Origin: Jimgerdemannia flammicorona
Lineage: Eukaryota
Assembly: GCA_003990765.1 (NCBI GenBank)
Contig: RBNJ01000086.1
Coordinates: forward strand, 1-42,707
Reading direction: 5' to 3'
Length of the DNA: 42,707 nt
Shown: positions 12,004 through 40,315 of the stretch, in pieces
How positions within the stretch are numbered: the first letter of the stretch is position 1
Layout: each line of letters opens with the position of its first letter
Made by a program: the position numbers and the translations under genes
Notes under the pieces: generated by a model
Seen by the model: only the letters and a program-made list of their open reading frames with translations
What the model was told of the DNA's origin: nothing
The model's database searches: none

Positions 12004-13272
12004 ATGCCTACTGCCTGCCAAACCTCAAGATCAAGGAACCACCAAGGTATCTCAGTCGAAGAAAGAATGTTCCAAGATATCAGAAGAGCCATGAGGACCC
12101 ACTCAAGAAGAACTCCTAGTATCAACCTGGGTACTACAGACCTCTATCACTTTATCCTCTACCACTATGAAATGGAAACAAGAATCACCATTGCTACCGA
12201 ATGCCTCTAAATGTGGCAGGAGTACAAAATAGGAAACCTCCTTGGCTGGGAGTTCCCACAGGCCAGCACTTAAGAGCTACACGATACCACTCCCATGGAC
12301 ATACATGAGATAAGAATGGCCAAGAAGATCCATCAGATCTTCAGGCATATATCATAGTCAATTCTAGTGCTCTCAAACAAGTCAAATCAATTTGAATTAA
12401 ATCAAATTGAGGGTTAAATGAGTCGAATCAAATTGGGGATTTTTCAATTCAAATCAATTTGAATTGAATCAAAAGTCAAATCAAATTGAGGGTCTAATTC
12501 AAACCCTAATTTTCAAAATGCAATAACTCAGCATAAACTCATCCAAATCTAACATACTTTAGCTTGTTAGAATTACATTAATACGGTGAATCTAACAAGC
12601 TAAAATATGTTAAATTTGGATGAGTTTTCATTGAGTTATTACATTTTGAAAATTAAGGTTCAAATCTAACTTCGAATCGAATTGGACCTTTGATTCGATT
12701 TGAATTGAATCAAATTGGACCCTTGATTCAATCAAATCGAATTGAGTTTGGGCCAAATTCGATTTGATTCAATTCATTGGGAGTACTAGTCAATCCCCAA
12801 CTTGGAGTATGTCAGAGTCTCAGATTTCAGAGACCTATCATCCTACCATATCAATGCACTAGAAGCCAGGGTGGCCACAGAAGCTCAGTCCACTATCACT
12901 CTCAACAGTAATGAAGTAGAAGACTTCTGACATCCTATCCTTTAGGACAACCTAGACCAATTCCTACAAGGATTGATCTCAGTATTTCAAGGCCCAAGTA
13001 TCTAGGTTAAATCTCTCCAAGATCCCACATTTGTCCCCTACTTTGTGGAAGAGAATCTCATAGACTGGAGAGCTCCAGATCTTGTTCCCAATTTCCCTAC
13101 CACCGAATGTGATGACATCATTGGCGATGACATCATCCCATATGACATCAAAGTACATGAAACACATGAAGTACACAAAACATGCAACCTACATGATGAA
13201 TTCACAGATCTCATCTCTTTTAGTGATGATGATGATGATGAAGCCTCCATAATCCTGAACTTTCTGCTCTAA
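12004..13272 (+). pseudogene. LTR-embedded accessory ORF, family 2, copy A (~278 codons after removing the MITE)
   Basis: Runs from MPTACQTSRSRNHQG to EASIILNFLL*. Matches 24743-23946. Has transition-derived stops and is split by the MITE at 12365-12788. Confidence 0.8.
12365..12788. mobile_element. Non-autonomous hAT-type MITE, copy 1
   Basis: Terminal inverted repeats TAGTGCTCTCAA..TTGGGAGTACTA. 8-bp TSD GTCAATTC/GTCAATCC. Dense GAATC/GATTC subterminal repeats and an internal hairpin at ~12500-12660. The site is empty in LTR copy B. Confidence 0.88.
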
Positions 13273-13312
13273 GTTCTTTGTTATACTGAATAATGCCAGC
13301 ACCAGTATTCTC

Positions 13313-16300
13313 TTTTTTTTTTTTTTTTTTTTTTATAGTCACTTGGACTTGTCCTTTATTACACTCATCTATCCTATATAAATACAATGAACCCACCCCC
13401 TATCCAATCTCCCTAGGGGGGCCCCTCCTCCCTACCTTTTCTCGATGAAATACTACTCTATTGAATACAATCCCCACTCTCCCACCACTTTGTTCGCATA
13501 TCCTTACTACCAAACTGTACTGCTGCCCTCCTAAAAGACCCCAACCTATCCACCATCCAGTCAACAGATCCCCCAACAGCTCCTCCCACCTTACAACCTT
13601 CTCCTGCAGGCTCATCTGCCACCCCTCCTTAAACACAAAAAGCCAATATCCTACCAGACCCACTCAAACTGCTAACACCCACCCGACAGTGAGCCAACTA
13701 TCACCCACCCCCCCCACCAGCCGAGATCTCAAGTCCTCTCAGCAATCCCCTTCACCTGCTGGCCTGCACTCCACACCCAGTCTATTCTCTATTTCAACCC
13801 TAAAGTCCCCCAAAACCTCACACTCTCCCAGCCAATGTTCCGACATCTGCACCAAACCCCCAGCTTGCTCTACATTGTAATACTCCTTACAGTTGAAATA
13901 GCCACCATCCACCAGATGCCTGGTGTGGAAATTCAGCATGACATTCCTCCGCAGCAATCACTACCACACTACCCAGAACTTGTGGGGAAGCCACCATCGC
14001 ACCTCAGCACTCCAAGACCATATCCCTGCCCAGTTCCACTCCTTGCCAATCCTGACTGCCTGCCAACCACTTGGCCAAAGATCCTGGCCAAGACCCTGCT
14101 GATACTCCACTCCATCCCCAATATCAAAAGTGACAAATGGAGCACCCCCCAGAAGCAGTCTATCCCATCACCACATACAAGGACCCCACAACACCTCCCC
14201 CTCATTGCCTTGCCAGCACAGACCAATTCTGTATGCTCCATTGACCACTCTCCACCAAAAGCCCTTAAATCGCAGCCACCGAATTTCATTGAGCCCTACC
14301 AAAGAGAGTAGATCTCCTGAGGACCCTTGGGGGGAGGTTCTCATCTTCCACACCTTCTACATCAGAAGTATCCAACTCTCTCCCTATAGTTCAGCTGCTC
14401 TCTTCAACCACCAGGCTCACAAGCAGTACAACCTCTTAGGAAAATCCATAAGGCCAAGACCTCTCCTGTCCACTGGTGTTGCAAGAGTATCCCAACTGAT
14501 CTGAGACCTCCTTCCTGCCCAAATCCAATCCCTAGCCACCTTTGTCAGCCTCTTCACCACCCATGCTGGGAAGTCTAGGTGGTATGCCACATACCATAGC
14601 TTGGGGAACCAGTATGTATTCAGAATTGACATCCGCCCTACTAGAGAGATATGGCAGCCTCTCCAACCTCGAAGAGCCTCCCCCCAAATAGCCACTCTAC
14701 TCACCCACCACACTTATGGCAAGACAGAACCATATACAGAGAGGAAGATACCCAGATACCATACTACCTTACCAGTAGGGACAATTGTTCCAATGATGTC
14801 CCCACTCACCAGTCCATTCCCTAGCACCATAGTCTCACACTTATGCCAGTTGAGCTTTGCCCCAGAGTGAACCTCATACCATTCCACCATCTCTTTAAGT
14901 GCCTTGACATCTGCTACAAACCCAAGGCCAACCACTATATCATTCACAAAGGCCCCCACCTTCCACACTATGCCATAGATAGAGCCCCACCACCTTCTGG
15001 CGAATCCTATCCATTAACAGTTCCAATGAGAGAGTATAAAGAATAGGGGATAAGGGGTCCCCCTGAGGAACCCCTCTTCTCAAGGTAAATGCCTGACCAT
15101 GGTGACCATTATACATCAGTGCTGCCTGACTGCCCTCAAGCAGATTCACTATAGAAGCCTGAAATCCAGGAGGAACACCAATACAATCCAACACCTTGCC
15201 CAGCCAAACCCACTGGACCTGGTCATAGGCCTTCTCCTGGTCCAAAAAGACCAACCTTCCATCCAGGCCACAAGCCTGGCCCCTTCAATAATACTATGCA
15301 CCCAAGCAGTCCTATCTCTTATAAGCCTGCCTCTAACAAAGTCCTGCTGCTTCTCCCCTAGCACCTGTTGGGCAACCTTCTACAGCCTTGCAACAACCAC
15401 CTTAGTTACCATCTTCCTGTCCATGTTCAAAAGCATGATCAGTTGCCAGTTCTTCCAGTCTTCTCTCCTCCCCTTGTCTTTGTACAATAAAGCCACCAGC
15501 CCGAGGTCCTGCTCTCCAACCCACTCACCGCTCTGAAGGATATGATCACAGAGAGCAGTCATCTCCCCCAGAATGCTGGAGACCTTGACCATCCTCTTCC
15601 AGAAGTCCCATGGTAGTCCATCCTCCCCTGGTGCTGTTCCAGTTTTAGTTACCACAAGGATACTCTGGACCTCCTCACTTCGCACTGGTAAGGCCAAGTC
15701 ATCCAGTTTAGCCACTTGTAGCTGCCTCCATTCCCCTAATGCATCTTCAATAGCTGCCTCATCAGCACCCCCTTTATCCTCACTCCACAAACCCTGCCAT
15801 CTCTCTTTCAAAACCTCTAGGATTTGTTGCATGCCATGTACCATGTCTCCATCAGCATCGAGGACCCCATCCCACTGATGTCTCACCCTCCTAGCACTGA
15901 GCAGATGGGATAAATATCTAGTAGGCCACTCACCCTCCTCAAGTCCCTGCCACTATAGCCTAGCAGCTATACCTCACATATGTACCTCCTCCTCTTCTCT
16001 CATCACCTGTTGCAGTTCCAATATCTCCAACTTAATCTGTGCTAACCTCCAATCCTCCACTCCATCAGAAGTAAGCAAATCTGCCCAATTCATTTGCAAT
16101 CTCCTCAGCCTGCTGGAGGCATACCTCATACACTTCCTTCTCTATCTCCCAGCTTCTCTCCCAGTCTCTCCCCAATAGACCCTTACAGCCTCTTTCAATC
16201 TCATCCACCAGATGCCCACTGACAAGCCCTCACACCTCCAGTGAGAAACTTTCACCTGAATGTCCTCTACCCATGAATCCCACAACCCCTTCTCAGCCAG

Positions 16301-17419
16301 CAGAGAGGAGTTGAGGTGCCAATGTCTGGGTCCATCTCCACTCTCCCAAACTGCCCCTGTCCCAACAGTCTCCAGTGATCAGACCATGGGCACCATTCCA
16401 CCTCCAATACCTTCCAGACATCAGACCCCCAGCATTCTGCCATCAGAATCCAGTTAATCCTTGTACCCAAGCCATTCACCCAATGTGTGTAGACCCTGGA
16501 GTTGCCCCATCATATTCTACCCATATCCCCTAAGGAGCTCAGCCTCTCCACCTCCTCCCATACATCCAGGCCTCCACTTTTCCCTCCTACACTCCTCCCA
16601 TCATCAGTGTGGTCCAGATGCTGATCCCAAACCATATTAAAGTCCCCCCCAATCACATCGACCCCTTCTGCCAAGAGAACACCCTCCTCCAGCAGCTCCT
16701 CAATCCATACAATCCTCTCACCCCTAACTGCAGGGCAGTAGCAAGAGCCAACCCTCACCAACTCCCACCCTGGCCACTGCCAATCTCCTCAGACCAAGTG
16801 GTCACCCCAGCTCCTGATTCCCTCTAAGTCACCTCTACCCTTCCTCACCAGAATCACCACTTTTCCAAACCAAGCAGTAGCCCCACTCCATTCCTTAGTC
16901 CACTTCACCCAATCATCCTCATCCTCATACCGAACATCCTGTAGTAAAAAGAGATCAGTCTCCAATCCCTTGAGCCAAGTAAAAATGTTCTTATGCTGTC
17001 CAGAACCCCTCAACCCATTCACATTCAAAGAGAAAATGTTAGTTGTACTGTTCATAAGGAATAATGTTAAAAAGTGATCCCATCCTCTATAAGTCCACAT
17101 TCTGCTCCTCCTGCACCAAGTCCAATTCACATTCAGCAGCTAGTTTTCTTTCCCCAGCTTCCTGTGCCTCCAATCCTCCCAGAAGTTCTACCATTGCCTC
17201 ATCTTCCCTCTCCTCAAATTCCTCTTGATACTCCAAACAGGCTTCCCTCCAGAGCTGCAAACCATGTCACTCAGCCCAGCAGTATGTTGCCTGCTCACCT
17301 GCAGCCACCACCAGCTCTGCCTTTCTCACCTCATTGACCTCATATCCCTCCTCCTTTAAGAGGATCACAAGAATCTCCCCCCTCAGCGCCTCCACCACTC
17401 TCTCACCATGCAGAATCCA
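13313..17419 (-). mobile_element. L1/Tx1-like LINE, 5'-truncated, with degenerate ORF2 (APE endonuclease + RT)
   Basis: 22-nt poly(A) tail (T run 13313-13334). 13-bp TSD CACCAGTATTCTC/CACTGGTATTCTC. ORF2 starts at 17055 with IFSLNVNGL..LFLLQD, followed by GGDFNMV, APGEDGLP, LDQEKAYD, RGVPQGDPLSP and AFVNDIVV. Many transition-derived stops. Confidence 0.93.
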
Positions 17420-17667
17420 CACTGGTATTCTCATGTAACACTGAATAATACCAGCACTGGCATTCTGAGGTGATGTGAAATTGTTCCAGCACTGGTAATC
17501 TGATGTGATACTGAATTATACCAGCATCCTTAACCTGTACAATCATCAGTACTGACTCTGGAACTTAGTAGTTTTAGTTATTGGAATTTATATTTAGCTT
17601 TATATCTTAGCAACTATTGAATTATATTTTATATAAATATCCCTCTTATTTCCTCTAAAATAAAGTC

Positions 17668-18090
17668 AGTTCCTCTCAGTACAATATACACACTTTCTTG
17701 TAAGCAATCTAAGAGATAATAAGACAGTTTAAAGATAAGAAGTTTGAGGACTATAAGACCTTAGGAAGACACTCCAATAAGAACTTGCTTATAACAAACT
17801 TGAGTTAGTCTAAGAGATACACCTTGAAGAGAATCTGATATATTTGAAGGACTCAATGCCCACTATATGACAATGTGTATAATATAGTTCCTCTCAGTGC
17901 AATACATACACTTCCTTGCAAGAAATCTAAGAGATAACAAGACAGTTTAAAGATAAGAAGTTTGAGGACTATAAGACCTTGGGAAGGTACTCCAATAAGA
18001 ACTTACTTATAACAAACTTGAGTTAGTCTAAGAGATATACCTTGAAGAGAATCTGGTATATTTGAAGAACTCAGTGACCACTATGTAATA
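17668..18090 (+). repeat. Tandem duplication of the terminal 205 bp of solo LTR A
   Basis: 17668-17872 and 17886-18090 both run from AGTTCCTCTCAGT to the LTR end, separated by 13 nt. Confidence 0.88.

Positions 18091-20265: not shown

Positions 20266-20266
<1 letters not shown>

Positions 20267-20332
<66 letters not shown>
20267..20332 (+). repeat. 66-nt poly(A) run inside the Copia 3' untranslated region
   Basis: Uninterrupted A run. Confidence 0.9.
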
Positions 20333-20335
<3 letters not shown>

Positions 20336-23440: not shown

Positions 23441-24965
23441 TGTCACATAGTGATCACTAAGTTCTTCAAATACACCAGATTCTCTTCAAGGTATATCTCT
23501 TAGACTAACTCAAGTTTATTATAAGCAAGTTCTTATTGGAGTACCTTCCCAAGGTCTTATAGTCCTCAAACTTCTTATCTTTAAACTGTCTTATTATCTC
23601 TTAGATTGCTTGTAAGGAAGTATATGTATTGTACTGAGAGAAACTGACTTTATTTCAGAGGAAATAAGAGGGGTATTTATACAAAATATAATTCAATGAT
23701 TGCTAAGATACATATAAAGCTAAATATAAATTCCAATAACTAAAATAAAATGCCAGGACAGGAAAAACTATTAAGTTCCAGGGTTGGCACTGATGGTTGT
23801 ATAGGTTCAGGATGCTGATATAATTTAGTATTACATCAGAATACTGGTACTGGTATTATTCAGTGTTATATCAAATGCTAGTACTGGAACAATTTTGTAT
23901 CACCTCAGAATGCTAGTGCTGGCATTATTCAGTGTAACAAGGAACTTAGAGCAGAAAGTTCAGGACCATGGGGACTTTATCCTTGTTATCATTGAAGGAG
24001 ATAAGATCTATGAATATTTCATCAAGATCACATAGGTCACACAGGATGATATCATCACCAATGATATCATCACATTTGGCAGCAGTGGGAACAAGGAGAT
24101 CTGGAGCTCTCCAGTCTATGAGGTTCTCTTTCACAAAATAGGAGACAAATGTGGGGTCTTGGGGAGGTCTAACCTGGATACTTGGGCCTTGAAATACTGA
24201 GATCAACCCTTACAGGAATTGGTCTGGATTGTCCTGGAGGATAGGATGCCAGAAGTCTTCTACTTCATCACTATTGAGAGTGATAGTGGACTGGGCTTCT
24301 GTAGCCACCCTGGCTTCTAGTACATTGATATGGTGGGATGACAGATCTCTGAAATCTGAGACTCTAATATACTCCAAGTTGGGGATTGACCATAGTGCAT
24401 GTCTGAAGATCTGACAGATCTTCTTAGCTGTCCTTGCCTCATATATATCCATGAGAGTGGCATCTTGTAGCTCTTGAGGGCTGGCCTGTGGGAACTCCTG
24501 GCAGAGAAGATTTCTTATTTCATACTCCTGCCATATTTGGAGATATTTGGTAGCAATGGTGATTCTTGTTTCCATTTTATAGCAGTAGAGGATATAATGA
24601 TAAGAGTTACCAGTACCCAGGTTAACATTAAGAGTTCTTCTTGAGTGGGTCCTCATAGCTCTTCTGATGTCTTGAAACATTCTTTCTTTGACTGAGGTGC
24701 CTTGGTAATTCCTTGACCTTGAGATTTGGCAGACAGCAGGCATTTCATTTATAGTAAGTCTTTGAGCTATTTTGGGATTGGTGGGTCTTATTGGTTGCTG
24801 CTACTGTAGTTCCTTAATCCTTCTTTTATATTCCTCAAGATACTTATACTGTGGTCATCATTACTCATCTCATATACTGTATGATCTTCTTGTGCTCCGA
24901 TTTGGTGGCTTACAAGGAAAGGCTGTCTTCTGTGCTGATGTCATCATTCTGGAGTCACTATTACA
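23441..24965 (-). mobile_element. Solo LTR, family 2, copy B (1525 bp), inserted in the Copia integrase
   Basis: TG..CA termini with short inverted ends (TGTCACATAGTGA / TCACTATTACA). 4-bp TSD CTAT at 23437-23440 and 24966-24969. The Copia integrase reading (RILNLIYI|DIYK) resumes across it. Confidence 0.88.
23946..24743 (-). pseudogene. LTR-embedded accessory ORF, family 2, copy B (265 codons, one internal TAA)
   Basis: ORFs 24743-24210 and 24206-23946 are in the same frame. The TAA at 24212-24210 is CAA in copy A. The C-terminus is acidic. Confidence 0.82.
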
Positions 24966-25556: not shown

Positions 25557-28520
25557 GGTGTACTATTTATCATATAAAGATTGCCACATTTCAAGGCTAT
25601 CATTAACCTCTTGTTATCATGTGAATTATATACTGCTGTGCTCTTTGAATATATATGTATCTCTTTATTACTATGGGTCATCATTTTGCCTATAGAGAAG
25701 AGGTTCTTTTCTATCTCTAGAGTATATAGTACATCTGTAAGAGTAGTGGCAGGCTTGATGACATTTTTATAGAGATATATACTGATATTTCTCTTTTCTT
25801 GAGTATAGATGATATTGTTATCTCCCAACTTGATGAGTATAGAGTGTTCAAATAGTTGATATATAGAGAACTATTTCCTATATAGTGTCATATATTGTAT
25901 AGCTCCAGAATATATTAACTAGACATTGTTGTCATCAGCTATATTGATATATTTGGTGGATATATAGTTGGCAGTTTTTCCATCTATACTGCTGGTGGCA
26001 CTGACATTATCACTACTTTTCATCAGTCCAAAAGTATTTCACTGATTAGTACTTATTGATAATAAGTTAGTGGATTTGAAACTAGATTCTGTACTAGCAG
26101 AACTAACAGAACTGGTGTTGTCAGAATTGGCAGTAAATTTGATGGGACTTTTAGGTCCAAAATTACTATCCTTGCCAGGCTTCATAGATGTAGAAGAACT
26201 GATGGCTTGTGCAAAAAATAGATAACCACTTTTATTAGTTTTAGTAGTATTTGTATTGCTACATTTTCTTCAATAGTTTCTACCACTCTTACATTGCCAA
26301 TGCTGGTTTCTTCCATACTTATTTTTACTTTCTCAGTAATAGTATTGATATTTTCTATATCTATACTTGCTACAGTATTCACAGTAGCTGTCATACTTAG
26401 TTAATTAGCTGTTATATTATTGAGTTTGGGTTTGAGTTCATTGGCTTTATTGACTATACCTTTTACCTTATTTGGTACTATACCTATAGAATATATAGAA
26501 TGCCCTTTTGTTATTATTGTCTTCAGCACAATTTCTTTAGTATATTTCCTCATTTATAAGGCTTATTATTACATAGGCATAGTTTATAAGAGTACCACTC
26601 TCATATATAGCTATGATAACAACATTATATGCATCCAGAAGACTCCTTGTGAGTACTATAATCTTATCTTTATTGTCAATACAATCTATAGATATGTTGA
26701 GAAAATTCACTTAATTTACCATATTATTAATATTATTGATATATTTATAGATACTCTTCTTAAGCTTTATTTAAAAATTGAACAGCTGAGATTTTAGGTG
26801 AAATCTATTCAATATAGATACTTATATATGATGATTACATAGGGCTTCTCATACTTTGTTAACTGTATCTATATGCATTATGAGCTTTGTTTGTAAGTTT
26901 GATAATATAAATGTAATCTCATATAATACTTAGTGATCATTTGTAGGATCATAGTCTTCAATCTACACTTGTGGCTTTATATACTCTACTAAGCTATATT
27001 TGTCAAGAAGATTCATTATATGGAATATCCAGATGGTATAATCTTTCTCATTGAAGATCAGAATAGATCTCTTGGTTATATTTATACTTATAATAGAGAC
27101 TGCTCTCATTGCCAGAATACTCATAGTTGATATATTCATATCACTTGTATTGCTAGATTGACTGTCTGCTATTTCTAGTATATATTATATAGTATATATT
27201 TATAAAGTATATATATATATATATATATATTTGCTATATCTGCTTAGTACTAGTGGAACTCATAACCTTTGTTAAAAAGAGGGGCATTTTTATTAAGTTT
27301 ACATAGGACACATATTTCATATATTACTGATAGATAATATAAGACCAATGATATCACTAATCATATATTGATATATTGGGTTACCATCCCAATACTATAA
27401 TAGGAGATAATCTCAAAAAAATCTCTGAAAAAATCAAGATCAAGAAATTCCACATTACTACAAAAATTCCAGATAAAGTACATGAATCTAATGCTACTAT
27501 TACTTTCAGGATTAGATCATATATATATATCAAATCTGTATTTATAATAAGTCCAAAATTTTTTCTCAAAGTACTAATTTATCTCACCAATATTACAGCT
27601 GATCAAAGTATATAATATGTATTTAATATACTATATCTAAAGAATACTAGAGGTGTGTTTATAATTATATAATACATATTAAATAAAAATAACACACTGT
27701 TCACAAGTCTGAAATCTGGAATAAGTAGTATATATTGTGGTGTGCAGTTTATATCCCTAGTTCTCTTCAAGAATGGCTCAATGTACCACTTGGTGAAGCG
27801 CGCAAAGGATGTGAGTGCATTCGCGACGGTTACAGGTCGATAGTCACGTGATCGGGTTATTCGAAACATGCGATATTTGATATTAGCGGTCATTCGATTG
27901 TTCAATGGCTCAATATTTAGTGGAAAAGGGCATTCCTGGTGGCGATTAACTTGGCAGTGAACTTGAATTTATACAGCAATGACAGGCTTGGCTTTAAGCG
28001 GTTCGTGGCATAGTAGGTTGGGAAAACAGAGGTTGATGACTCGCTCGTCTGTCTTGACTTGTTAACTTGAAAGGTTCTGAGCAGTCATTTATGTAGGCTG
28101 GCAGATCGGTCTTTGGCGGTCTAGTATCCTTTGGCTGGGTATCCTTGGGTTTCCGGGTCTTGAATCTCAAATGGCGGTTGAATGCATGGTCTGAATGGCA
28201 GTCTGAATGTGCGGCAGTCATGGTCTTGAATTCCTTAGCTGGGTCTTGGGTCTCGAATAGTGGTCAAATGGCAGTCCGAATGCATGGCAGTTGTGGTCTT
28301 GAATCCTTGACTGGGTCTCGGGTCTCGAATGGCAGTCGAATGGCAGCAGTCAGGTAATGTTTTCTTTCCGTGGCAAGAGAAAATTCTTTAACTTAAACTT
28401 CTGAGCAATCCATTGCTCTAGGTTGTTATCTTGTTCTCAGAATTTATCTGGTCTCTTGGAGGCAGTGGTTTCTTTGTAAACTAGAACTGACTGAGGTTTA
28501 TTCACTCTAAGAATATGGGT

Positions 28521-28528
28521 TATTTATA
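28521..28528 (-). promoter_or_regulatory. Candidate main LTR TATA box (TATAAATA); equivalent at 38751-38758
   Basis: Minus-strand GTATAAATAACCC lies downstream of the LTR ORF. The family-2 LTR has a matching TATAAATA at the analogous position (17632). Confidence 0.55.
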
Positions 28529-28887
28529 CAAGTTTGCTAGCTATGGATATGGCTAAGGTATACTACATTGTGGTGAACATTCGCTATACTATTGGCTTAT
28601 ACGATGCAAGGTGCAGGCTATTGTTTACTACAGATTAAGTTGTAGGGGATAGCAATGCTGGATTCGGATGAGCAGACATGAATGCTGATTATTGCCAGAA
28701 ATGGTTGTGGAGGGTGGCAATGCTGAAAATGGGTGTTGCTGACTTGCTGACAAATGTGGGATCACTGAATTGAGATAGGGCGAGTACCAGTGCCGGATTC
28801 AGTTGTTGGGGGTGGTATCACTGGAAATGGATGTTACTGACTTGCTGACAAACAATGGCTAACTGGACTGAGGAAGCAGACATTGGA

Positions 28888-29871
28888 TCACTGAATGGTA
28901 AAGTACCCTTCATCAGTGAACCAATCATCTTGCTGGGTTGTGACCTCTTCATTCTGTTCTTCAAAGAGTGGGAGCACCGGCCAGGAGGTGAGGGGGTAGA
29001 AAAGTGGCCAGTCATCTTCAACAACATTCTCTAACCCTTGAACAGCTTGAATGTGGACAGAGGACTGGTAGACTCTCTGTTGCTCCTCTTCTTCTTCTGA
29101 AGACTCGTCAGTTTCAGTGTCAGAGGGGGTTTCTTCAGGGGTAGGGTCTTGGGGTTCTTGGACTTCCTCTTCAAAGACAGAGACCTCTTGGGCTTCTTCT
29201 TGATTCAGTTCCCAAATGATGAGATGTGAATTGTGGCTGGCAGGGTGGTGGGTAGTTGGGGTAGCTCTAACGGGTGCTTCTATGGTAATGGGCGGTCCTT
29301 CAAATATCTCCATAAGACTCATTAGGTGACCTTGATGGTTGTCTCGGAGTGGGGTGGTGTGGAAACCTGGCTAAGTAAGTTCAGTTTGTTGGCTTCCTAC
29401 AGCAACGCTGTTGCTGCCAATAGAGTTGGCTACTTCAGATTCTATCCAGTCAGCATCTTTGGTTGAAAGGCAGGAGAGGCTGCCAGCCATTACTCCTTGC
29501 AAGTATGCTATGGCCCAGGGAATATGGCGGAAGATTTGGTGGACATGGAGGGCTCTCTTGATTAGCTGGCTGGTGGTTAACAATTCGGTAATGAGGTCTT
29601 CCCGGTCATCTTCTTGAGTCTCATTGCGAAGGTGGTGTCTGATTTCGTAGTCATGCCAGAGGGTCATTCGTTTGGTAGTATCTTTGAGCTGTTGGGTCAT
29701 TATATACCGGTAGTTGATGAAGTGTCCAAGATCCTCAGTATAGAAGTTCAAGTGTTCGGAAGTATCTGGGTGCCAGATGGCCTTCTTGATAGCTTCAAAG
29801 ATCAGGGTCTTTGGGTCAGGCAAAGGGGTAGAGTGGCGGGAGGTCTGGTTGGATCAGCGAATGGGAGGCAT
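28888..29871 (-). pseudogene. LTR-embedded accessory ORF, family 1, 3' LTR copy (327 aa when repaired)
   Basis: ATG at 29871 (MPPIR*SNQ..PDPK). Single frame to the stop at 28888. Internal stops near 29855 and at 29371-29373 are CGA and CAG in the other LTR. Confidence 0.85.
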
Positions 29872-30085
29872 TGTATGGTAGATACTTGGTTCTTTGGTGC
29901 CGATCCCTGAGGCAGAGTATGGTTCCTTAAATAACGGTCTTCATTTTGGCTTGGATCATCTTGTCTTCTTTTGGCAAAATCACTTGACGGATTGGGCTGG
30001 TCACTAGTTATCACGCCATAATGTCATCTGATCTTGTGGTCGCAGAATACTCCAAATTTGGACAGGGTCGATTGTAGACGTCACA

Positions 30086-30096
30086 TCTGCCCCTTG
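30086..30096 (-). other. Polypurine tract
   Basis: Minus-strand AAGGGGCAGA immediately before the TGTGA start of the 3' LTR. Confidence 0.75.
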
Positions 30097-30409
30097 CAAA
30101 ATTAGAGCCATCCTCAGCAGTGAGGGTTACACAGAGTTGGGTGGTCTTAACTCCAGGGACGAGCAGAATGTCAGCACATTTGTAAGGACTGCCCATCCTT
30201 GTCTAGAGCAAGGGCTTCCATAGTCGCAGCTGGGGGTTTGAACCTATCAGAATAGTATTTCTTGTAATCTGAGGCAATTTCTTAGTAACAATATCTGTCA
30301 TGTGGATGGGCTTGAGTCTGGTTCCAACATTGTTAGCTTTCTTGAGTTCCGAGTGAAATGTCTGTCATATCTCCAATGGAGATGACACAGACAGAGTGAA
30401 CAGGATTGT

Positions 30410-33130
30410 TCAAATGCATTTTACTTCTCTTGAGTAGTAGAGTCTTATGCGGTTGTGGTGTATCTTGGTCTTGAGTATAACTCCATCCAAGGTCTTAAGT
30501 TGATAAGTATGGTTTGAGAATACTTGGTGTATGAGATAGGGGTCTTCCCATTTTGGTTTAAGCTTGGCACTCCAATTTCCTTCTATGATGGTACGGTACA
30601 CCAGAACCTTTTGTTCAATGAGCAGGGGTTCAAGGTCGGCTTTGCGGTTGTAGTATCTCTTTTGTCGTTCTTGTGTCTTGACAATAAATCCTCGTGCCTG
30701 CTGGCATACATTGTGTAACCGGGTGATCTCTTCTGTGACTCACTTTGACAGATCTAGCTGGACTGATTCAGTAGGATCTTGTGCTTCTTGGCCATATACC
30801 AAATAGAAGGGGGTCTGTTGGGTAGCAGTTGCCTTAGAGGTACGGATGCTAAACAGAATTGCTGGTAGATAGATATCCCAGTTTAGTTGATCTCTGGTTC
30901 TACTGAGACCTCACTTGATGGTCTGGTTCATTCATTCAGTGAGTCCATTTGCCTGTGGGTGGTAGGCTGTTGTTGGTCGTAGCTTGATCTTGAAGTTGCT
31001 CGCAAAGGTCTTCATGGCTTGGTTGATGAATTCTCGGTCTTGATCTATAATGATTTCCTTGGGCACACCATGGCGGCTGAAAATTTCATCATACAGGATC
31101 CCAATAATTGTCTGGGCATTGGCAGTCTCAATGGCAAAAGCTTCCGGCCATTTTGTCAGGTGGTCTTTGATAGTGAGGATGTAGTGTCTTCCTCAGCTGG
31201 TTACTGGTAGGGGTCCAATAATGTCTATTCCCAGTCTTTGAAAGGCTCCAGCTGGTGCTGCAATTGGTATTAATGGTGCTCTGTCGGTAGGCTTTTGTCG
31301 GTATCTTTGGCAGGTATCACATTGTTGAATGTGTGTTGAAATTTGTTTTCTCATCTTGGGTCACCAGTATTGCTTCTTGATTCTTGCGATTGTGGTGCCA
31401 ATTCCTCAGTGTGCATTTTGGTCATGATTTGTTGTCAGGATCTTCAATATTTCTTCTTCTCTTGGAACTCGGGTATACTGCTCTCTATCTACTCTCTAAA
31501 GTTTGCCATCGCCTTCTTGGAATTTCTTGAAATTCCTTTGGATAAATAACTTGTGGGCTGGTTGGATTCCTTTCTTGAAGCTTCTATGGTGCAGACTCCA
31601 GGTGAGGGCGAGGCACAATTCTTGGTTCATTTGGGTGAGCGGGAAGCAGCCTTCTCTTGTGGGGGCTCCTTCCCTTCTTGTTGGTTTTGCAGGATTCTTG
31701 ACAGGATATCAACATTGGAATTCTTAGTACCTTTCTTGTAGACAATAGTGAACTGATATTCTTGCAGAGACATGATCCATCTAGCGAAGATTCCTGAGGG
31801 CTCCGGCTTATTGAATAACTATTGTAGAGCTTGATGGTCAGTAATGAGAGCGAATCTCTTTCCCAAGAGATAGTGTCAGAAGTGGTCCACAGCCCAAACT
31901 ACTGCTAGGCATTCCAACTTAGTGGCTCCATAGTTTGCTTGTGTTTCATTTGTGGTCTTGCTAGCATATTTGATAACATGCTCCCTCTTCTGGTCATCTT
32001 GCTGAGACAGAATTGATCCAAGTCCTAAGGCTGAGGCATCAGTTGCCAGGATGAATGGTTTGCCAAAGTCTGGTCACACCAGGACAGGGGCTTCAGTAAG
32101 GGCCTTCTTGAGTAGGTTGAATGACTTTTGTTGTTCTTCTTTTCAGTAGAATGGTTGGTCCTTCTTGGAGATATCTCGAAGAGGTGCTGCCTTATCTGAA
32201 AACCTTGGGATGAATTGTCAATAGTAGGATTCCAGCATAAGGAAAGATAGGGTCTCCTTTGCTGAGGTTGGGGTTGGGTAGTTCTTGACTTTCTCCACCT
32301 TGCAGGGGTTGGTATGTGTTCCTTGAGCTGAGACAACATATCTCAGATATTTGACTTAATGTTTTCTGAAGAAGCACTTCTTGGCATTGAGTCTGAGTCC
32401 TGAATTTCGGATGGTATTGAATACTTCACGGAGGTCTTGCAAATGCTGCTTGAATGTCTCAGAGTAGATGATTACATCATCTATGTACACTAGTACATTT
32501 CTTCCAATGAGGTCCCAGTAGACATAGTTCATCATTCATTGGAATGAGGTGGGTGCATTGCAGAGTCCAAAGGGTATTCATAGGTATTCATACTGTCCTC
32601 ATCTGGTGATGAAGGCTATCTTGCAGATATCTTCTTTGGCAATGGGTATTACTTGGAATCCTTGGAACTGGTCAGTAGTGGTCATGTATTTGGCTTTTCC
32701 AAGGACATTGATAAGGTCATCAATTCTTAGCAGTGGGTAGGCATCTTCTGTGGTGACTTTGTTGAGTTTTCTGAAATCCACGACTAATCTCCATTCTCCT
32801 TTCTTTGGTACTATGATTGCTAGTGAAGCCCAGGGGCTTGATGATGGTCTGATGACTCTATTTCATAGCATTTCATCTATGTATTGTTGTTCGAATTCAA
32901 TCAGATGATGTGGTGTTCAGTAGGGTCATTGTCGGATTGGTCTTGCATCTCCAGTATGTATAGAGTGTTCTCCGTATTGATATGGTGGGAAGTTATCATA
33001 TGTGGTGGTAAATATATCTTTATACTCCTCTATCAACTCTTGTATCTGTTATTGCTGGTCCTTGGTTAGAGTTGTCTCAATGTTGACGGCTTTGATTACT
33101 GAATTTGCTGAGTCTTCCTCTCTGGTACCA
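30410..33130 (-). pseudogene. pol: Gypsy pol: reverse transcriptase, RNase H, integrase
   Basis: SSPWAS, VDFRKLNKVT..DAYPL.RIDD, PFGLCNAP, VYIDDVII (~32480), ATDAS, ECLAVVWAV, ITDHQAL, an HHCC region (~31420-31310), IDIIGPLP, YHPQANGLTE and a C-terminal PKWEDPY. Multiple stops. Confidence 0.93.
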
Positions 33131-33530
33131 TCAGTCTCACTGGAGAGGACTTGCCATTTCTCAAGAATTCAAAGACTTCTTCCTCATAGGTATCTATCAG
33201 TGGTTCGAAATATCCCATTGTTGTTCCCTTGGGGATAGTTATTACTTCAAAGCCCAAGTTTCTGATAGAGATGTGGATTGGTGACATCTGGTCATGAATT
33301 TGTTCTTCAGCCAGGAGGATGTAGTATTCCTTTTGAAGCTCCAGTGATGGTGCAAATATTAAGTTGTTTGCTTCTACTGGTAGGTGCACATCTAGGCCTT
33401 TTTGCTAGTAGGGCTGCAGGAGGATGTCTTCTCTTGCTCAGATTGGGCGATAGATATGGGGTCTCATTTGTCGGAATTGAGCAACTATTGCTAAATGAAC
33501 CTCAATAGGTGGTGTCCATAGATTTCTATT

Positions 33531-33941
33531 GGTGCTTCCAAAGCCTCCTTGTCCTCTGTTGGTATCTTCTAGTTGGTCTACCTCTTAGATAGTCAGCTGT
33601 GATGTCTTGATAAACAGGATTTGGCAGATGGCTTCCATAGAACTGAAGAATTGGCTGGTTCTACTAGAATTGCAGATAATGGCCTTCAAGGGACCTCAGT
33701 AGTCCTGATCAATGACTCCTCCTTCTACTGTGACTCCTTTGGTTGCCAATGAGGATCTTGAGGCCAATTGTCTATAATGCCCAGGTGGTATAGTGAATGC
33801 GATCTGTAGGTCGAAAGTCCTGGTACTTCTGGGTCGGATTCTTGCTTGGTAGGGGAGGCAGAGGTCATAACCAACTGATCCTTCTGTTTGTGCAAGAGGT
33901 GGCTGTGCCCAGGGTGAAAGCAGCTTGATCTGGATAATTGG
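33531..33941 (-). pseudogene. dut: dUTPase domain within the Gypsy polyprotein
   Basis: All five motifs in one frame: GSVGYDL, ASRSSLA, GGVIDQDY*G, AICQIL and RGQGGFGST. The stops are TGA and TAA, consistent with CGA and CAA. Confidence 0.93.
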
Positions 33942-35093
33942 TTAAGCTTTGAGAAATGGTGCTTCAGCTGTTGCCATTGTAGGTGAGAAGTCCATGCGCT
34001 CCGGTTTGAAGAAAGGCCAGTGAGCTCCTGTCTTTGAGTTTCTTGTGTAATTGAATCCAGTCTTTCCTAGAGGGTCCAGAGCTTCTATAAGAATGAAGGC
34101 AAGATTGATATCTTCTTTTCCTTGATGAGGGCAGCAGTACCAGCAAATGATGGCAAGAACTTCCAATGGTAGGTCCCAGATAGAGGTCTTGCTCTTGAAC
34201 TTACAATCTCCTTCATGGTTGATTTCTTTGCACTTCTGATAGGCCCAGCGAATTCGAGGTTCTTGCAGGGTGGGATCCTTTCTCTTGACTTGGCTCTTGT
34301 AGACATCTTCGCTGAGGTGAACATCTCGATGTTCATACCAGTAGCAGGTAAAGGTTTTTCCACAATCACAATGTCCCTTCTTGACAAAGTCTTCATTTTG
34401 CTGTCTGACCTCCTTACTGGTAGGGAATCTCTTCCGATACTTATCATAGGTGGGCTGTGTGATCTAGAGGGCCCGAGTGATAGTGTAAGAGCTGTTGCTT
34501 TCTCCTTTGATGGTAAGAGACTCGAATGTTTGGCAGGCAAGGATCTTCTGTCCTTCCTTATAGGTCTTCTTAAAGGTCTTCGGGGTTGGAGGTTGTATTT
34601 GGCTGTGGGATGGTGCTTTCTTCAATTCGTCCTTATCATCAATTTCTGGCATTGGAACCTTCTTGAGATCCAGGATTCGGCAATTGCTGCAATTATCTCT
34701 TGGTGAGTGAAAGCTGATGAAATGTTCACATATGCCTTGATGAAAGGCTCATATGATCTGATTTTCTACCAGTGGTGGTGGTGGTTGAGCAGAAGGTCCT
34801 GTAAACTCAAGTGCTGCCCTTGTATTAATGGCTCTATCAATGCTTTCTTCTATATCTTCAACACTAATAACTCCAATGAAAGAGTCTTCTTGTTTGCTTT
34901 CTTGGTCCCTTGGGGCATCGAAATCACTTCCTAGTTCTTGTAGGAAATTGGCCTCGCTTTCATCCTCAGTAGTAGTGGGGGTGTCGCCATGTCCTTGCCA
35001 TTCTGTTTCTGAGGCTTGATTCATCTTTTTGGATAATCCTTTTGAGTCAATGGGCACCTTGTGCTTCTGTCTATGAATGGAGAAGACCAGGAG

Positions 35094-35400
35094 TTATTTC
35101 TTGATATCTATATTGGCTCCAACTTGGCTTAACCAGTCAGTTCCCAGAATCAGGTCATAGGAGGTTGCGGGGGTCATGACAGCTTTGGGTACATTGAGGC
35201 AGGCCTTTCCAACTTGAATGGGGATGTCTCTGACAAGTCCAAGGGGTGTGGAAGCTGATCCGTCAGCCATGATAACTCTTGCTTTGGTTCCTTCATCTAT
35301 TCCCCATCCAATTTGCTCCAATATCCTTTGGGTGATGATGCATACTGCTGCTCCAGTATCGATGAGAATTCTGGTATTTTTACCATGCACTTTTCCATTG
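35094..35400 (-). pseudogene. Gypsy aspartic protease
   Basis: ILIDTGAAVCII..MADGS..PLG..YDLILGTDWL. Confidence 0.9.
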
Positions 35401-35636
35401 GCAAGTCTTGTAGATTGATGTTCATATTGCTGACTCTCATGGGCTGTGTGGATAGTACTAGGTTCTTGAGTGTGTAGTCCTTGGACTGGAAGTCTCTTAG
35501 TATCTTCTTTGGCTTCTTTCAGGAATTTTCGCCTGACCTCTGGTGCATTCTTGAGGACTTGCTCAACTGTAAGACCAGCATTCTATAGGCGGATATGTTC
35601 CCAAAGTGAGGCTGCTGCATGGGGCTTGCTGCTTCT

Positions 35637-37895
35637 TCAGTATCTTGGTCCCTTGGGGTATAGTCTCTCATTCCTGATAGGCATTTCATCAGCTGAAGAT
35701 TCTATGCTCATATGCTCATCTTCTTCAAGGTCTGGCAGAGTAGAGCTGGGGGTTATCCTAGATGGTCCAGCTTCTGGTTCAGGAGTATCTCTTCTAACTT
35801 GCTTCTCCTGTTCTTGTAGAGTGTCTGAAGAAGAATGACCATGTTGTGGATGCTTGCCTGTGGATATTATTACTGGCAGTTGAGGTGGGGGGTTCCTTCG
35901 TGGTCTTCCTTGTCCTCTGGTCTCTGCAGGGGCAGCTTCCCATGTCACCTTGGATGGAAAAGCCTCGAAGTATGAGTAGATGTCATCTTCTTGACCATGG
36001 AGCCAGGCTGCTTCTTCTTCCATTTCCTGAGTCTCTTCATCTACCTGAAAGAGGTTGACATTTCTGTCATTGGACTGGGTGGATTGGTTCCTTGGACAAT
36101 TCCTCTGGATGTGGCCTTGATTTCTGCAGTTGAAGCAGGTGGGACTATAGGAACCAGTCGCTGATGAGACTATAGTTGCAGCTGGTAGTGCAGGAGCAGG
36201 ACCTCTGTTGTCTTGTTGCTAGTAGTCTGGTCTGTTATCATGATGGTAGTCTTGTTGTCTTCTTCCTTGGTTCTTCAGCTGGGCAACTGCGATGGCCAGG
36301 TCCTTCATTTGCTTGGTGAGTATTGTCATGGAGTCTTCTTGACCTCTTGATGGTGGCTGCTGCTGTGGTTGCCTGAATGGAGTCAGATTTGTGGGTGCTG
36401 GTCTGTTCTCATAGTTGGCAATCTGGGCTCTGAGGAAGGCATTCTCTTGCTCCATAGTTATTCCTTGGGTCCTTGGGGTTTCAGCTCAGATTGACTCATG
36501 ATAGCCTTGTACTTATTGTACTGGTCTATAATCTGCTTCCCAACATCCTTGTGCTCCAGCAACTTGCTGTTCAATGTTTCAATATCTCATCCTGATAACT
36601 TGCCTTTGGAGTTCTGGGTATAAGCCATTGAGGAAGGTAGTTGAAGCTAGAGCCAGTTGGACTGCTGGTTGAAGGTTCGCCTTGATCATTTGAGCTTGAA
36701 TCTGATGGTAGAAACTCTTGGGAGTTTCATTGGCAGCTTGGCTCATGTAGGTCAAAGCCTCCTGTGCTTCTTGTTGGTGCTCAAATCCATTGAACTGAGC
36801 ACGGAGCCAGGCTTTGTGAATCATGTACCTTGCTACATGGTTTCTATCAGATTGAAGGCTGTCATTCAGTTCCTCTGCATGGATTCCTCCTCCGGCTTGC
36901 TTGACTTGATTATACCTCTGTAGGGCTGGTCCTCTCAGGAGTGACTCTACAATTCTGAGTTTTCTTGCAGCATCCCATTGTTTGGCGGCTGCTTGAACTT
37001 CAATTTCTCTAAAGAATTCCTTGATATCTTCATTGTCTGCACCATGGAACTTCTGAAGGTAGCTCATGTCTGGCTTATCTTCACTATCTGAGTATTGTTC
37101 AGGGGTAGGGGATTGGCAGATCCTCAGGGTGATGGGGAAGGTAGTGGTGCTAGTACTTGATGATCTAGTGGTACTGGCAGAGGGTAGTGTCTTGGTGAGG
37201 ATGAGGGTAATCTGGCTCTTCTAATTAATGCTGGAGTTGAAGTCCTGGGTAGTGGTGGAGATCTTCTGATAGACTGGTGATAGTGGCAAGGTGTGAGTGA
37301 TCAGGGTACTGAAGTTCGAGCAACTGATGGTGGGAGTGGACTGATACATATAACTGATAGTGAGTTCATCTGCCCCTTGCTGTTGTGAAGTAGTGAGGTC
37401 TTGTTTGCCTTGTTGTGAGTCAGTGTTGCTGTCTGGATAATAGTATAGGTTGAATTCGTCCCTTTGATGGTCTGATCCCCAATCATCATCTTGCTCTGGT
37501 TGATATGGATGATAGTCCTCTTCTCCTTCTGATGTTTCAAAGTATACCCAGTCTAGTGGAGTGACTCGAGTAATAACAGTAGTTATGTAGTTACTTCTGT
37601 CTGAGTTCTTCCTATGGATAAGGGTCTGATACTCTTTGGGGATATCCTCTTCTTCTTCTTGGCCTAAGTCTTGGATCTGAAGGGGCAGTTCTGGTTGTCC
37701 TCTGAGTCGTCTCCTTTCTCTTGAAGTCAAACCATAATCTGGGTCACTTCTTTCTTCTGATTCGGTTTTCTGGCTACTGGTGTTGAGTAGGGTCCTAGCT
37801 ACTGTTCTGACAAGAGTGTGGGCTTTCTTTTCTGCTGAGGAGGGCTGTTGCTGCCCCTGGTTTGGTTGCTGACTTAGTCCTGCTAAGTTCTCCAC
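35637..37895 (-). pseudogene. gag: Gypsy gag (capsid-like region + CCHC knuckle) with a long in-frame acidic N-terminal extension
   Basis: LQKFHGADNEDIKEFF..LRGPALQRY..QAANETPKSFY..FLNGL and CFNCRNQGHIQRNC at 36137-36096. Same frame as the protease. Confidence 0.85.
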
Positions 37896-37945
37896 TGTAG
37901 ATAGCTGGGTTCTTGAGCCAAATGGTCAAGTCTTTTAAAAAACTT

Positions 37946-37962
37946 TCCCAGTTGAGCCCCCA
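37946..37962 (-). other. Primer-binding site, tRNA-Pro type
   Basis: TGGGGGCTCAACTGGGA lies 3 nt after the LTR end. It resembles the canonical tRNA-Pro PBS TGGGGGCTCGTCCGGGAT with CpG decay. Confidence 0.8.
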
Positions 37963-37965
37963 AAA

Positions 37966-40315
37966 TGTGGTGTGCGGTTTGTATCCCTAGTTCTCTTCAA
38001 GCATGGCTCAATGTGCCACTTGGTGAAGCACATGAAGGATGTGAGTGCATTCATGATGGTTACGGGTTGATAGTCACATGATCGGGTCATTCGAAACATG
38101 CAATATTTGATATTAGTGGTTGTTCGATTGTTCAATGGCTCAATATCCAGTGGAAAAGGGTGTTCCTGGCAGCAATTAACTTGGCGGCGAACTTGAATTT
38201 ATACGGCAATGATGGGCTTGGCTTTAAGTGGTTCGTGGTGCAGTAGGTCGGGAAAACAGAGGTTGACAGCTCGCTCATCTGTCTTGACTTGTTAACTTGA
38301 AAGGTTCTGGGCGGTCATTCATGTAGGCTGGCAGGTCGGTCTTTGGCAGTCTAGTATCCTTTGGCTGAGTATCCTAGGGTTTCCGGGTCTTGAATCTCGA
38401 ATGGCAGTCGAATGTGCGGTCTGAATGGTGGTCTGAATGCATGGTGGTCGTGGTCTTGAATTCCTTGGCTGGGTCTCGAGTCTCGAATGGCAGTCGAATG
38501 GCGGTCCGAATGCACGGCGGTTGTGGTCTTGAATCCTTGGCTGGGTCTCGGGTCTCGAATGGTGGTTGAATGGCGGCGGTTGGGTAATGTTTTCTTTCCG
38601 TGGTAAGAGAAAATTCTTTAACTCAAACTTCTGAGCAATCCATTGCTCTAGGTTGTTATCTTGTTCTCAGAATTTTTCTGGTCTCTTGGAGGCAGTGGTT
38701 TCTTTGTAAACTAGAACTGACTGAGGTTTATTCACTCTAAGAATATGGGTTATTTATACAAGTTTGCTAGCTATGGATGCGGCTAAGGTATACTACATTG
38801 TGGCAAACATTTGCTATGCTATTGGCTTGCATGATGCAAGGTGCAGGCTATTGTTTACTATGGATTGGGTTGTAGGGGATAGCAACACTGGATTTGGATG
38901 AGCAGACATAAATGCTGATTATTGCCAGAAATGGTTGTGGAGGGTGGCAATGCTGAAAACAGGTGTTGCTGACTTGCTGACAAATGTGGGATCACTGAAT
39001 TGAGATAGGGCGAGTGCCAGTGCTGGATTCGGTTGTTGGAGGTGGTATCACTGGAAACAGATGTTACTGACTTGCTGACAAACGATGGCTAACCGGACTG
39101 AGGAAGTGGACATTGGATCACTGAATGGTAAAGTACCCTTTGTCAATGAACCAATCATCTTGCTGGGTTGTGATCTCTTTATTCCATTCTTCAAAGGGTG
39201 GGAGCGCCAGCCAGGAGGTGAGGGGGTAGAAAAGTGGCCAGTCATCTTCAACAACATTCTCCAACCCTTGAACAGCTTGAATGCGGACAGAGGACTGGTA
39301 GACTCTCTGTTGCTCCTCTTCTTCTTCTGAAGACTCATCAGTTTCAGTGTCAGAGGGAGTTTCTTCAGAGGCAGGGTCTTGGGGTTCTTGGACTTCCTCT
39401 TCAAAGACAGGGACCTCTTGGGCTTCTTCTTGATTCGGTTCCCAAATGATGAGATATGAATTGTGGCTGGCAGGGTGGTGGGTGGTTGGGGTAGCTCCAA
39501 CGGGTGCTTCTATGGTAATAGGCGGTCCTTCAAATATCTCCATAAGACTCATTAGGTGACCTTGATGATTGTCTCGGAGTGGGGTAGTGTGGAAACCTGG
39601 CTGAGTAGGTTCGGTTTGTTGGCTTCCTATGGTGACACTGTTGCTGCCAATAGAGTTGGCTACTTCAGATTCTATCCAGTCAGCATCTTCGGTTGAAAGG
39701 CAGGAGAGGCTACCAGCTGTTACTCCTTGCAAGTATGCTATGGCCCAGGGAATATGGCAGAAGATTTGGTGGACACAGAGGGCTCTCTTGATTAGCCAGC
39801 TGGTGGTTAACAATTTGGTAATGAGGTCTTCCCGGTCGTCTTCTTGAGTCTCATTGCGAAGGTGGTGTCTGATTTTGTAGTCATGCCAGAGGGTCATTTA
39901 TTCGGTAGTGTCTTTAAGCTGTTGGGTCATTATATACCAGTAGTTGATGAAGTGTCCAAGGTCCTCGGTGTAGAAGTTCAAGTGTTCAGAAGTATCTGGG
40001 TGCTAGATGACCTTCTTGATAGCTTCAAAGATCAGGGTCTTTGGGCCAGGCAAAGGAGTAGAGTGGCAGGAGGTCTGGTTGGATCGGCGAATGGGAGACA
40101 TTGTGTGGTGGATACTTGGTTCTTTGGTGCTGATCCCTGAGGCAGAGTATGGTTCCTTAAATAATGGTCTTCATTTTAGCTCAGATCATCTTATCTTCTT
40201 TTGGCGAAATCACTTGACGGATTGGGCTGGTCACCAGTTATCATGCTATAATGTCGTCTGATCTTGTGGTCGCAGAATACTCCGAATTTGGATAGGGTTG
40301 ATTGTAGATGTCACA
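37966..40315 (-). repeat. 5' LTR of the Gypsy element (2350 bp)
   Basis: Direct repeat of 27736-30085, adjacent to the PBS. Confidence 0.95.
39118..40101 (-). pseudogene. LTR-embedded accessory ORF, family 1, 5' LTR copy
   Basis: ATG at 40101. Stops near 40004 and at 39898-39900 are sense codons in the 3' LTR. The remaining 259 codons are open. Confidence 0.85.

Follow-up and report, generated by a model that had tools for sequence, protein, structure and literature searches.

A reading frame in the long terminal repeats of element A

The stretch of DNA analyzed here, hereafter the window, comprises positions 1 to 42,707 of contig RBNJ01000086.1 of Jimgerdemannia flammicorona (assembly GCA_003990765.1; 42,707 nucleotides). 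It contains a decayed yet complete Ty3/Gypsy retrotransposon, termed element A, in which both long terminal repeats (LTRs) carry the same open reading frame (ORF) of 327 codons. The explanation favored here, held with moderate confidence and weighted toward the gene being real and resident in the LTR, is that this ORF serves an LTR-retrotransposon lineage as an accessory gene. The element and its ORF copies lie as follows:

27736..40315, minus strand: element A, a decayed yet complete Ty3/Gypsy element of 12,580 bp (LTR pair, Pfam domains and flanks)
37966..40315, minus strand: 5' LTR of element A, 2350 bp, TG..CA (self-comparison)
30086..37965, minus strand: internal region of element A, 7880 bp, with gag (zf-CCHC), protease (PR), dUTPase, reverse transcriptase (RT), RNase H and integrase (INT) (Pfam)
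27736..30085, minus strand: 3' LTR of element A, 2350 bp, TG..CA (self-comparison), with a purine-rich tract just upstream in element sense
39118..40101, minus strand: LTR-borne ORF of the 5' LTR, 327 codons and a terminal stop, interrupted by stops at codons 33 and 68 (LTR positions 215-1198)
28888..29871, minus strand: LTR-borne ORF of the 3' LTR, 327 codons and a terminal stop, interrupted by stops at codons 6 and 167 (LTR positions 215-1198)

Self-comparison of the window reveals one long direct repeat, in which positions 27736-30085 match 37966-40315 over 2350 bp each with 91.96% identity, 189 mismatches and no gaps. Both copies of this LTR, termed LTR-A, start with TGTG and end with CACA, corresponding to TG...CA termini in direct orientation. 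Between them, Pfam recognizes a zf-CCHC domain, an aspartic protease, a dUTPase, RVT_1, RNase H and the zinc-binding and core domains of an integrase, in this order. A purine-rich tract, AAGGGGCAGA, adjoins the 3' LTR in element sense (minus strand), and a candidate primer-binding site beginning with TGG lies 2 nt past the 5' LTR. With paired TG...CA LTRs and the order gag(CCHC)-PR-RT-RNase H-INT, element A is a Ty3/Gypsy element, in line with the initial annotation, which had named a 2.35-kb Gypsy LTR as the carrier of the ORF.

The internal region, where gag begins near position 37067, is broken by many stops and its domains occupy three frames. These frames hold gag-PR-dUTPase, RT-RNase H and the integrase, respectively, yet the two 2350-bp LTRs have remained without an indel since insertion; the frame changes may be older than the insertion or may be part of the element's mode of expression. 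The flanks of element A match over 8 bp (GTATATAT, positions 27728-27735 and 40316-40323) in TA-rich DNA, which exceeds the 4-6 bp usual for Gypsy target-site duplications; read as a 4-bp target site, three of the four positions match.

The domains of element A lie on the minus strand, and the two ORFs, running from 29871 to 28888 and from 40101 to 39118, are therefore in sense orientation to the element. It had been claimed from the letters alone that both LTRs contain the same sense frame, interrupted in each copy by two stops that are sense codons in the other copy, and that the inserting element thus had an open frame of 327 codons. All of this holds: both copies occupy LTR positions 215-1198, and the stops at codons 6 and 167 of the 3' LTR copy, which ends in ...DDWFTDEGYFTIQ, as well as those at codons 33 and 68 of the 5' LTR copy, are sense codons in the respective other copy. 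Transitions make up 186 of the 189 differences between the LTRs, and when C or G is assumed as the earlier state at each of these 186 sites, the restored frame is open over 350 codons from stop to stop. The runner-up frame anywhere in the restored LTR has 153 codons, and none of 2000 mononucleotide shuffles of the LTR attains 327 codons (maximum 265, median 125). Within the ORF, codon positions 1, 2 and 3 account for 24, 15 and 22 of the differences between the two copies, of which 22 are synonymous and 39 non-synonymous. Such a pattern is expected of neutral decay once the element had inserted, and the copy-to-copy comparison is therefore silent on earlier selection.

A protein family residing in two types of LTR

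The evidence for a selected gene comes mainly from relatives outside the window. In public protein sets, 17 homologues of the LTR ORF are found (P0001-P0017), several of them full length. A word-indexed protein search with the 5' LTR copy as query, in which stops were replaced by X, retrieved two proteins, P0001 (325 aa, free of stops, E 6.4e-155) and P0002 (200 aa). P0001 is identical to the restored frame of the window at 264 of 320 positions; three in-frame indels (3, 1 and 1 residues) separate the two, and the last ~10 residues diverge. When a profile of the close relatives, which together with the window type form subfamily (i), was compared with 1.84 billion representatives, seven proteins were obtained at E <= 0.001, and this profile gave access to the distant members P0003 (342 aa, E 5e-24), P0005 (214 aa, E 6.7e-22) and P0006 (247 aa, E 2e-14). 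A second word search with a wider alignment returned 13 proteins at E <= 0.001 (5803 candidates).

The family consists of about three subfamilies with a mutual identity of about 30%: subfamily (i), the window (LTR-A) type; subfamily (ii), comprising P0006, P0009, P0011, P0012, P0016 and P0017, with a C-terminus of the form ...DEDEAPxxLNFLL; and subfamily (iii), comprising P0003 and P0005. Full-length members start with MPP or MPA, and intact members span 271-342 aa. The subfamilies have several motif blocks in common (DLGHF, WH[DE]YEI, HQxFRHxPW, LxDNxDQ and F[EQ]GPxI), and a C-terminal motif, DD[WF]x5[YN]F[TL][IL], is common to acidic tails that are otherwise unalignable. No homologue has a name beyond “hypothetical protein,” a precomputed Pfam domain or a fusion to another domain, and a search for fused or longer forms among longer proteins found none in 7999 candidates, which is weak evidence. 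As non-coding DNA would not hold frames of 271-342 codons at about 30% identity, these relatives constitute the main evidence for a protein-coding gene under selection, and the LTR ORF is very probably such a gene.

A search of the window with the family members (tblastn) identified two further copies of the ORF, both of subfamily (ii). They lie in a second type of LTR, LTR-B, which forms an inverted pair of 1.5-kb TG..CA repeats, and a third related LTR is cut by the edge of the window:

23441..24965, minus strand: right solo LTR-B, 1525 bp, starting with TGTAAT and ending with GTGACA, ATAG on both sides
23946..24743, minus strand: homologous ORF in the right LTR-B, 265 codons with one internal stop (LTR-B positions 223-1020; tblastn match 24743-23949)
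11762..18090, plus strand: left LTR-B, same ends, flanks TTAT and CTAT, opposite orientation, with two insertions
12004..13272, plus strand: homologous ORF in the left LTR-B, split into 12004-12363 and 12790-13272, with six internal stops (tblastn, to 13269)
12363-12788: palindromic insert in the left LTR-B, 426 bp, splitting the LTR-B ORF
13312-17433, minus strand: non-LTR retrotransposon in the left LTR-B, 4.1 kb, with Exo_endo_phos and RVT_1 domains and a poly(A) stretch at 13312-13334
1..706, plus strand: third related LTR, termed LTR-C, 3' terminal ~600 bp; its ORF-bearing part would fall outside the window

Because no Gypsy internal remnant was found in the window outside element A (57 query segments), the LTR-B units are read as solo LTRs. 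The ORF of the right LTR-B is 66% identical to P0009 across the full length of the latter. In LTR-A the ORF starts at LTR position 215 and ends at 1198, in LTR-B it starts at 223 and ends at 1020, and the proteins encoded by the two LTR types are only 24-29% identical. The combination of a shared LTR position with so low a protein identity indicates that the gene was there before LTR types A and B diverged and, therefore, did not enter one of them by recent insertion; its residence in the LTR is quite likely an ancestral feature. That the ORF might prove to be a separate insertion, which had been named as a way to refute the initial reading, is countered by the homologue at the same offset in LTR-B. 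A comparison of LTR-B divergence inside and outside the ORF is uninformative (79-81% throughout).

Several further observations concern these repeats. The left LTR-B contains a 218-bp duplication. The matching flanks of the solo LTR-B copies are 4 bp long, as opposed to 8 bp at element A. The 426-bp insert has long internal inverted repeats, in that 12454-12717 pairs with itself in reverse, and is bordered by GTCAAT on both sides, resembling a miniature inverted-repeat transposable element. The non-LTR retrotransposon is accompanied by a duplicated target of ~33 bp and shows a plus-strand GC skew of -0.35 to -0.51. LTR-C contains units similar to a 72-bp tandem repeat of LTR-A (see below) and an internally duplicated 51-bp block that is 92% identical to LTR-A positions 2015-2065.

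The initial annotation had described the protein as having a helical-looking N-terminal half and a strongly acidic tail, and structure prediction and composition agree with this description. An AlphaFold2 model built with 16 sequences has a mean predicted local distance difference test score (pLDDT) of 51.8 and a predicted template modeling score of 0.43 and is usable for the N-domain only, where helices are predicted at residues 20-33, 48-84, 90-114, 118-123, 129-133 and 137-151 (block pLDDT 55-91); residues 161-325 remain below 50. With four sequences the pLDDT was 38 and the model unusable. The protein is thus predicted to begin with an N-domain of about 190 aa that is helical, followed by a disordered and strongly acidic tail that carries the conserved C-terminal motif. 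The N-domain, at pI 5.6-6.6, is close to neutral; the tail carries a net charge of -16 to -26 (22-30 D and E residues vs 4-9 K and R residues) and contains 11-27 W, F, Y or L residues. Acidic, aromatic-studded sequences of this make-up are typical of acidic activation or adaptor tails. No membrane or hydrophobic segment is present, the maximum Kyte-Doolittle mean over 19 residues being 1.07.

Comparison with known families and folds returned no relative. Pfam assigns no family at E <= 0.01 to either of the LTR-A copies and none to 16 family members; its best-scoring entry, ATG5_HBR (E 0.028, in 3 of 16 members), was treated as noise. A sequence profile gave no match at E <= 10 in the PDB, and the AlphaFold2 model gave none at E <= 0.001 with Foldseek against the PDB, with template modeling (TM) scores of at most 0.16 among the best 10. 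In the ESM Atlas no score reached 0.9 (best <= 0.87) and no TM score reached 0.5 (<= 0.39). A duplicate of gag was considered as the origin of the ORF and rejected, as hhalign gives a probability of 0.35% against the element's own gag. An already described LTR-borne domain, likewise named as a way to refute the initial reading, did not emerge from Pfam or the PDB.

Transcription, function and competing explanations

Motifs that may govern transcription of the ORF and of the element recur at similar places in both LTR types. The promoter and poly(A) assignments given here are motif matches only:

40156..40226, minus strand: candidate ORF promoter in the 5' LTR, with CCAAT at LTR-A position 91 and TTATTTAAG at 152-160 (motifs; equivalent in the 3' LTR at 29926-29996)
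38408..38576, minus strand: 72-bp tandem repeat downstream of the ORF in the 5' LTR, 2.3 copies (LTR-A ~1740-1900)
28193-28346, minus strand: 72-bp tandem repeat in the 3' LTR, 2.1 copies
38198..38203, minus strand: second TATA[AT]A in the 5' LTR, LTR-A position 2113, 237 bp from the LTR 3' end (3' LTR: 27968-27973)

In LTR-A, the ATG of the ORF at position 215 stands in the context CACAATG. In the right copy of LTR-B, a TATA-type box, TATAAAAG, is found at position 136 and the ATG at 223; a CCAAT upstream of the TATA box is absent, and CCAAT matches at 172 and 185 follow it. TATA-type boxes thus lie 62-87 bp upstream of the ATG in both LTR types, which also have the 9-mer TTAAGGAAC in common near position 150. 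Past the stop codon, poly(A)-type signals are present in LTR-A (AATAAA at 1584, both copies) and in the right LTR-B (AATAAA or ATTAAA matches at 1312 and 1446). The second TATA[AT]A has its counterpart at position 1285 of LTR-B, 240 bp from the LTR 3' end, and this distal box is a candidate promoter of the genomic RNA. With the boundary between U3 and R (the unique 3' and the terminally repeated part of the LTR) judged from the TATA motifs, the chances are about even that the ORF lies in U3 and is served by its own promoter.

From these elements a mechanism can be proposed. The 327-codon gene would be an accessory gene of an LTR-retrotransposon lineage, housed within the LTR and therefore copied to both ends with each insertion and retained in solo LTRs. 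It would lie in U3, ahead of the promoter that the element itself uses, namely the TATA that follows the tandem repeats at about 240 bp from the LTR 3' end; this distal TATA would drive the genomic RNA and leave a short R-U5. A TATA/CCAAT promoter of its own within ~200 bp of the LTR start, together with the poly(A) signal past the stop, would make each LTR a self-contained transcription unit. The protein may then act as a two-part adaptor and trans-acting regulator, with an N-domain that docks on a component of the host or of the element and an acidic tail that recruits the transcription or chromatin machinery, thereby boosting or de-repressing LTR transcription. A transactivating or anti-silencing action is possible but doubtful. 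Somewhat less likely again is the full scheme of a promoter-ORF-terminator cassette in which solo LTRs remain working genes and a genome-wide pool of the factor activates the members of the family or shields them from methylation-based silencing.

Other arrangements of the same motifs have to be considered. If the proximal TATA at about position 153 were the sole promoter, the ORF would lie in R/U5 as a leader ORF and be the first cistron either on the genomic RNA or on a short transcript that ends prematurely inside the 5' LTR. The upstream CCAAT and TTATTTAAG with a good start context in LTR-A, the corresponding TATAAAAG and ATG in LTR-B and the AATAAA behind the stop of both LTR-A copies would all fit such an arrangement. 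However, it requires an R/U5 of 1.3-2.1 kb followed by ~1 kb more leader before gag, by which translation of gag would be badly hampered, and the 72-bp repeats and the TATA at a conserved distance of ~240 bp from both LTR 3' ends suit the usual short R-U5, so that an R/U5 location appears improbable. Somewhat less probable still is expression through splicing of the full-length transcript to a subgenomic RNA, the acceptor lying shortly before the ATG in the 3' LTR, in the manner of MMTV (mouse mammary tumor virus) sag or HIV (human immunodeficiency virus) nef. A pyrimidine-rich stretch, CTCTGCCTCAG/G at LTR-A ~169-180, lies 36 nt before the ATG and could serve as such an acceptor, but an intron of about 8 kb would be required, whereas fungal introns usually measure tens to hundreds of bases. 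LTR-B, moreover, lacks an equally good acceptor, and solo LTRs would be unable to express the gene in this way, yet the right solo LTR-B has one stop only.

With regard to the gene itself, it might be a captured host gene or piece of a mobile element that hitch-hikes without a role for the element, and its dissimilarity to gag (the hhalign result above) and to the retroelement domains of Pfam would agree with this. A cellular homologue was, however, not found, 17 of 17 relatives are short and of the same architecture with none fused, the search among longer proteins came back empty, and the same LTR position in two types with such divergent proteins argues for long retention under constraint; capture without a role therefore has a slight chance. 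The slightest of all belongs to a non-functional frame, that is, a by-product of LTR composition among open stretches picked by gene callers in repeats. All four ORF copies in the window are indeed broken (2, 2, 1 and 6 internal stops), several database relatives are fragments and the copy-to-copy changes look neutral, but no shuffled LTR reaches 327 codons, and neither the homology across subfamilies of ~30% identity (E 5e-24 to 2e-14) nor the block motifs and intact members of 271-342 aa are accommodated by this explanation.

A number of points weigh against the favored explanation of an LTR-housed accessory gene. On the side of the gene, the window's own copies differ in a neutral-looking pattern, and differences between P0001 and the window occur in 8 of 74 deeply conserved columns vs 34 of 165 variable columns, which is a trend only (Fisher p = 0.069). 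The homologues are known as protein sequences alone, all of them come from short contigs of jgi/ena records (567-4848 bp), and many are fragments between stops, so that most copies must be decayed. On the side of the LTR, the promoter and poly(A) calls are bare matches in AT-drifted sequence, and LTR-B is known only as solo LTRs, which makes its link to a Gypsy element an indirect one. As to function, the N-domain is not basic and direct DNA binding is therefore not favored, and no match to a fold or family lends support. Of the original proposal of an accessory gene, such as a transactivator or an anti-silencing factor, the real and conserved LTR-borne gene stands, given the full-length homologues and the second LTR type; the functional part is a guess drawn from the composition of the tail.

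Two viral systems offer the closest comparisons. The sag gene of MMTV encodes a superantigen in the U3 of a betaretrovirus LTR, and other genes of complex retroviruses overlap U3, as does HIV nef. As in MMTV sag, an ORF of about 320 codons lies wholly in the LTR, in sense orientation and at both ends. MMTV Sag, however, is a type II membrane glycoprotein, whereas the LTR-ORF protein has neither a hydrophobic segment nor a Pfam match and its carrier is a Gypsy retrotransposon without env. The best analogy for how the protein might work is offered by Tas/Bel1 of foamy viruses and similar retroviral transactivators, proteins of ~300 aa with a folded N-terminal part and an acidic C-terminal part, encoded at the 3' end or the edge of U3 under a promoter of their own. 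Size, two-part layout and tail composition are alike, but there is no similarity in sequence or fold, the N-domain is not basic and the gene lies entirely inside the LTR.

Among LTR retrotransposons, additional ORFs are found in Grande, RIRE2, Retand and Boty, and the accessible part of a review assigns them to the internal region, where they precede gag or follow pol ahead of the 3' LTR and are often in antisense, and describes their origin and function as unknown (Vicient and Casacuberta, 2020; PMC7264820). As far as that account goes, the LTR ORF resembles them in being conserved over copies and related families without a cellular homologue (four copies in the window, 17 relatives) and differs from them in lying inside the repeat and in sense, hence also in solo LTRs; its position is unusual because the additional ORFs are assigned there to the internal region. 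Fungal Gypsy elements bearing a dUTPase include PosPlaTy3-5 of Postia as well as elements of Phanerochaete and Tmt1 of Tuber, and no LTR-internal ORF is mentioned in the accessible part of that study, compared by description only (Novikova et al., 2010; PMC2864245). Element A likewise has its dUTPase between protease and RT, as PosPlaTy3-5 does in the same description; the domain lies at ~33500-33900 on the minus strand (Pfam E 1.2e-26).

In the main texts of the freely accessible literature, no account was found of an ORF lying within an LTR for any LTR retrotransposon, fungal or otherwise. The LTR ORF is thus potentially new as a retroelement accessory gene, coming from a new protein family and occupying a new location, by which solo LTRs become potential genes as well. 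Little is understood of the accessory genes that LTR retrotransposons carry, and the case bears on how accessory functions evolved before complex retroviruses. It also has a consequence for annotation, in that LTRs and solo LTRs get masked as non-coding, yet those described here house a conserved gene, and solo LTRs may still express a protein. Should the protein counter silencing or transactivate LTRs, it would provide a handle on the expansion of such elements in repeat-rich fungal genomes, and an LTR cassette with a trans-acting regulator would amount to a retrotransposon counter-defense without a described parallel outside complex retroviruses. The protein family is small, has recognizable motifs and is testable.

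Decay of the repeats and other features of the window

The 186 transitions between the two LTR-A copies fall into the contexts CpG (126), CpA (38), CpC (20) and CpT (2), as compared with a background of 236 CpG, 331 CpA, 328 CpC and 289 CpT dinucleotides in the restored LTR. Classic repeat-induced point mutation (RIP), which acts in the CpA context, was considered as the mutation process and set aside for a spectrum centered on CpG. The ratio of observed to expected CpG is 0.02-0.05 in AT-rich blocks, 0.19 in the internal region of element A and 1.08 in the genic stretch at 2-10 kb. Because the transitions are mostly at CpG and the ratio is low only in repeats and AT-rich blocks, the decay looks like deamination of methylated CpG restricted to repeats and not like classic CpA-type RIP. 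A methylation-based system of such kind is described for a truffle genome in the accessible part of PMC12581995.

The AT-rich blocks at 18100-23400, 25000-27700 and 40320-42707 have a GC content of 0.23-0.30 and share the CpG ratio of 0.02-0.05, which points to repeat-targeted loss of CpG; no coding remnant was recognized in them. The only host gene recognized by Pfam in the first 11 kb is a carboxylesterase-family gene at ~8000-10000 on the minus strand (COesterase, E 8e-47), which is split over frames, i.e., by introns. The AT-rich right flank contains inverted and direct repeats at 41368-42250, where positions 41866-42250 pair with themselves in reverse and 41368-41566 matches 42216-42017.

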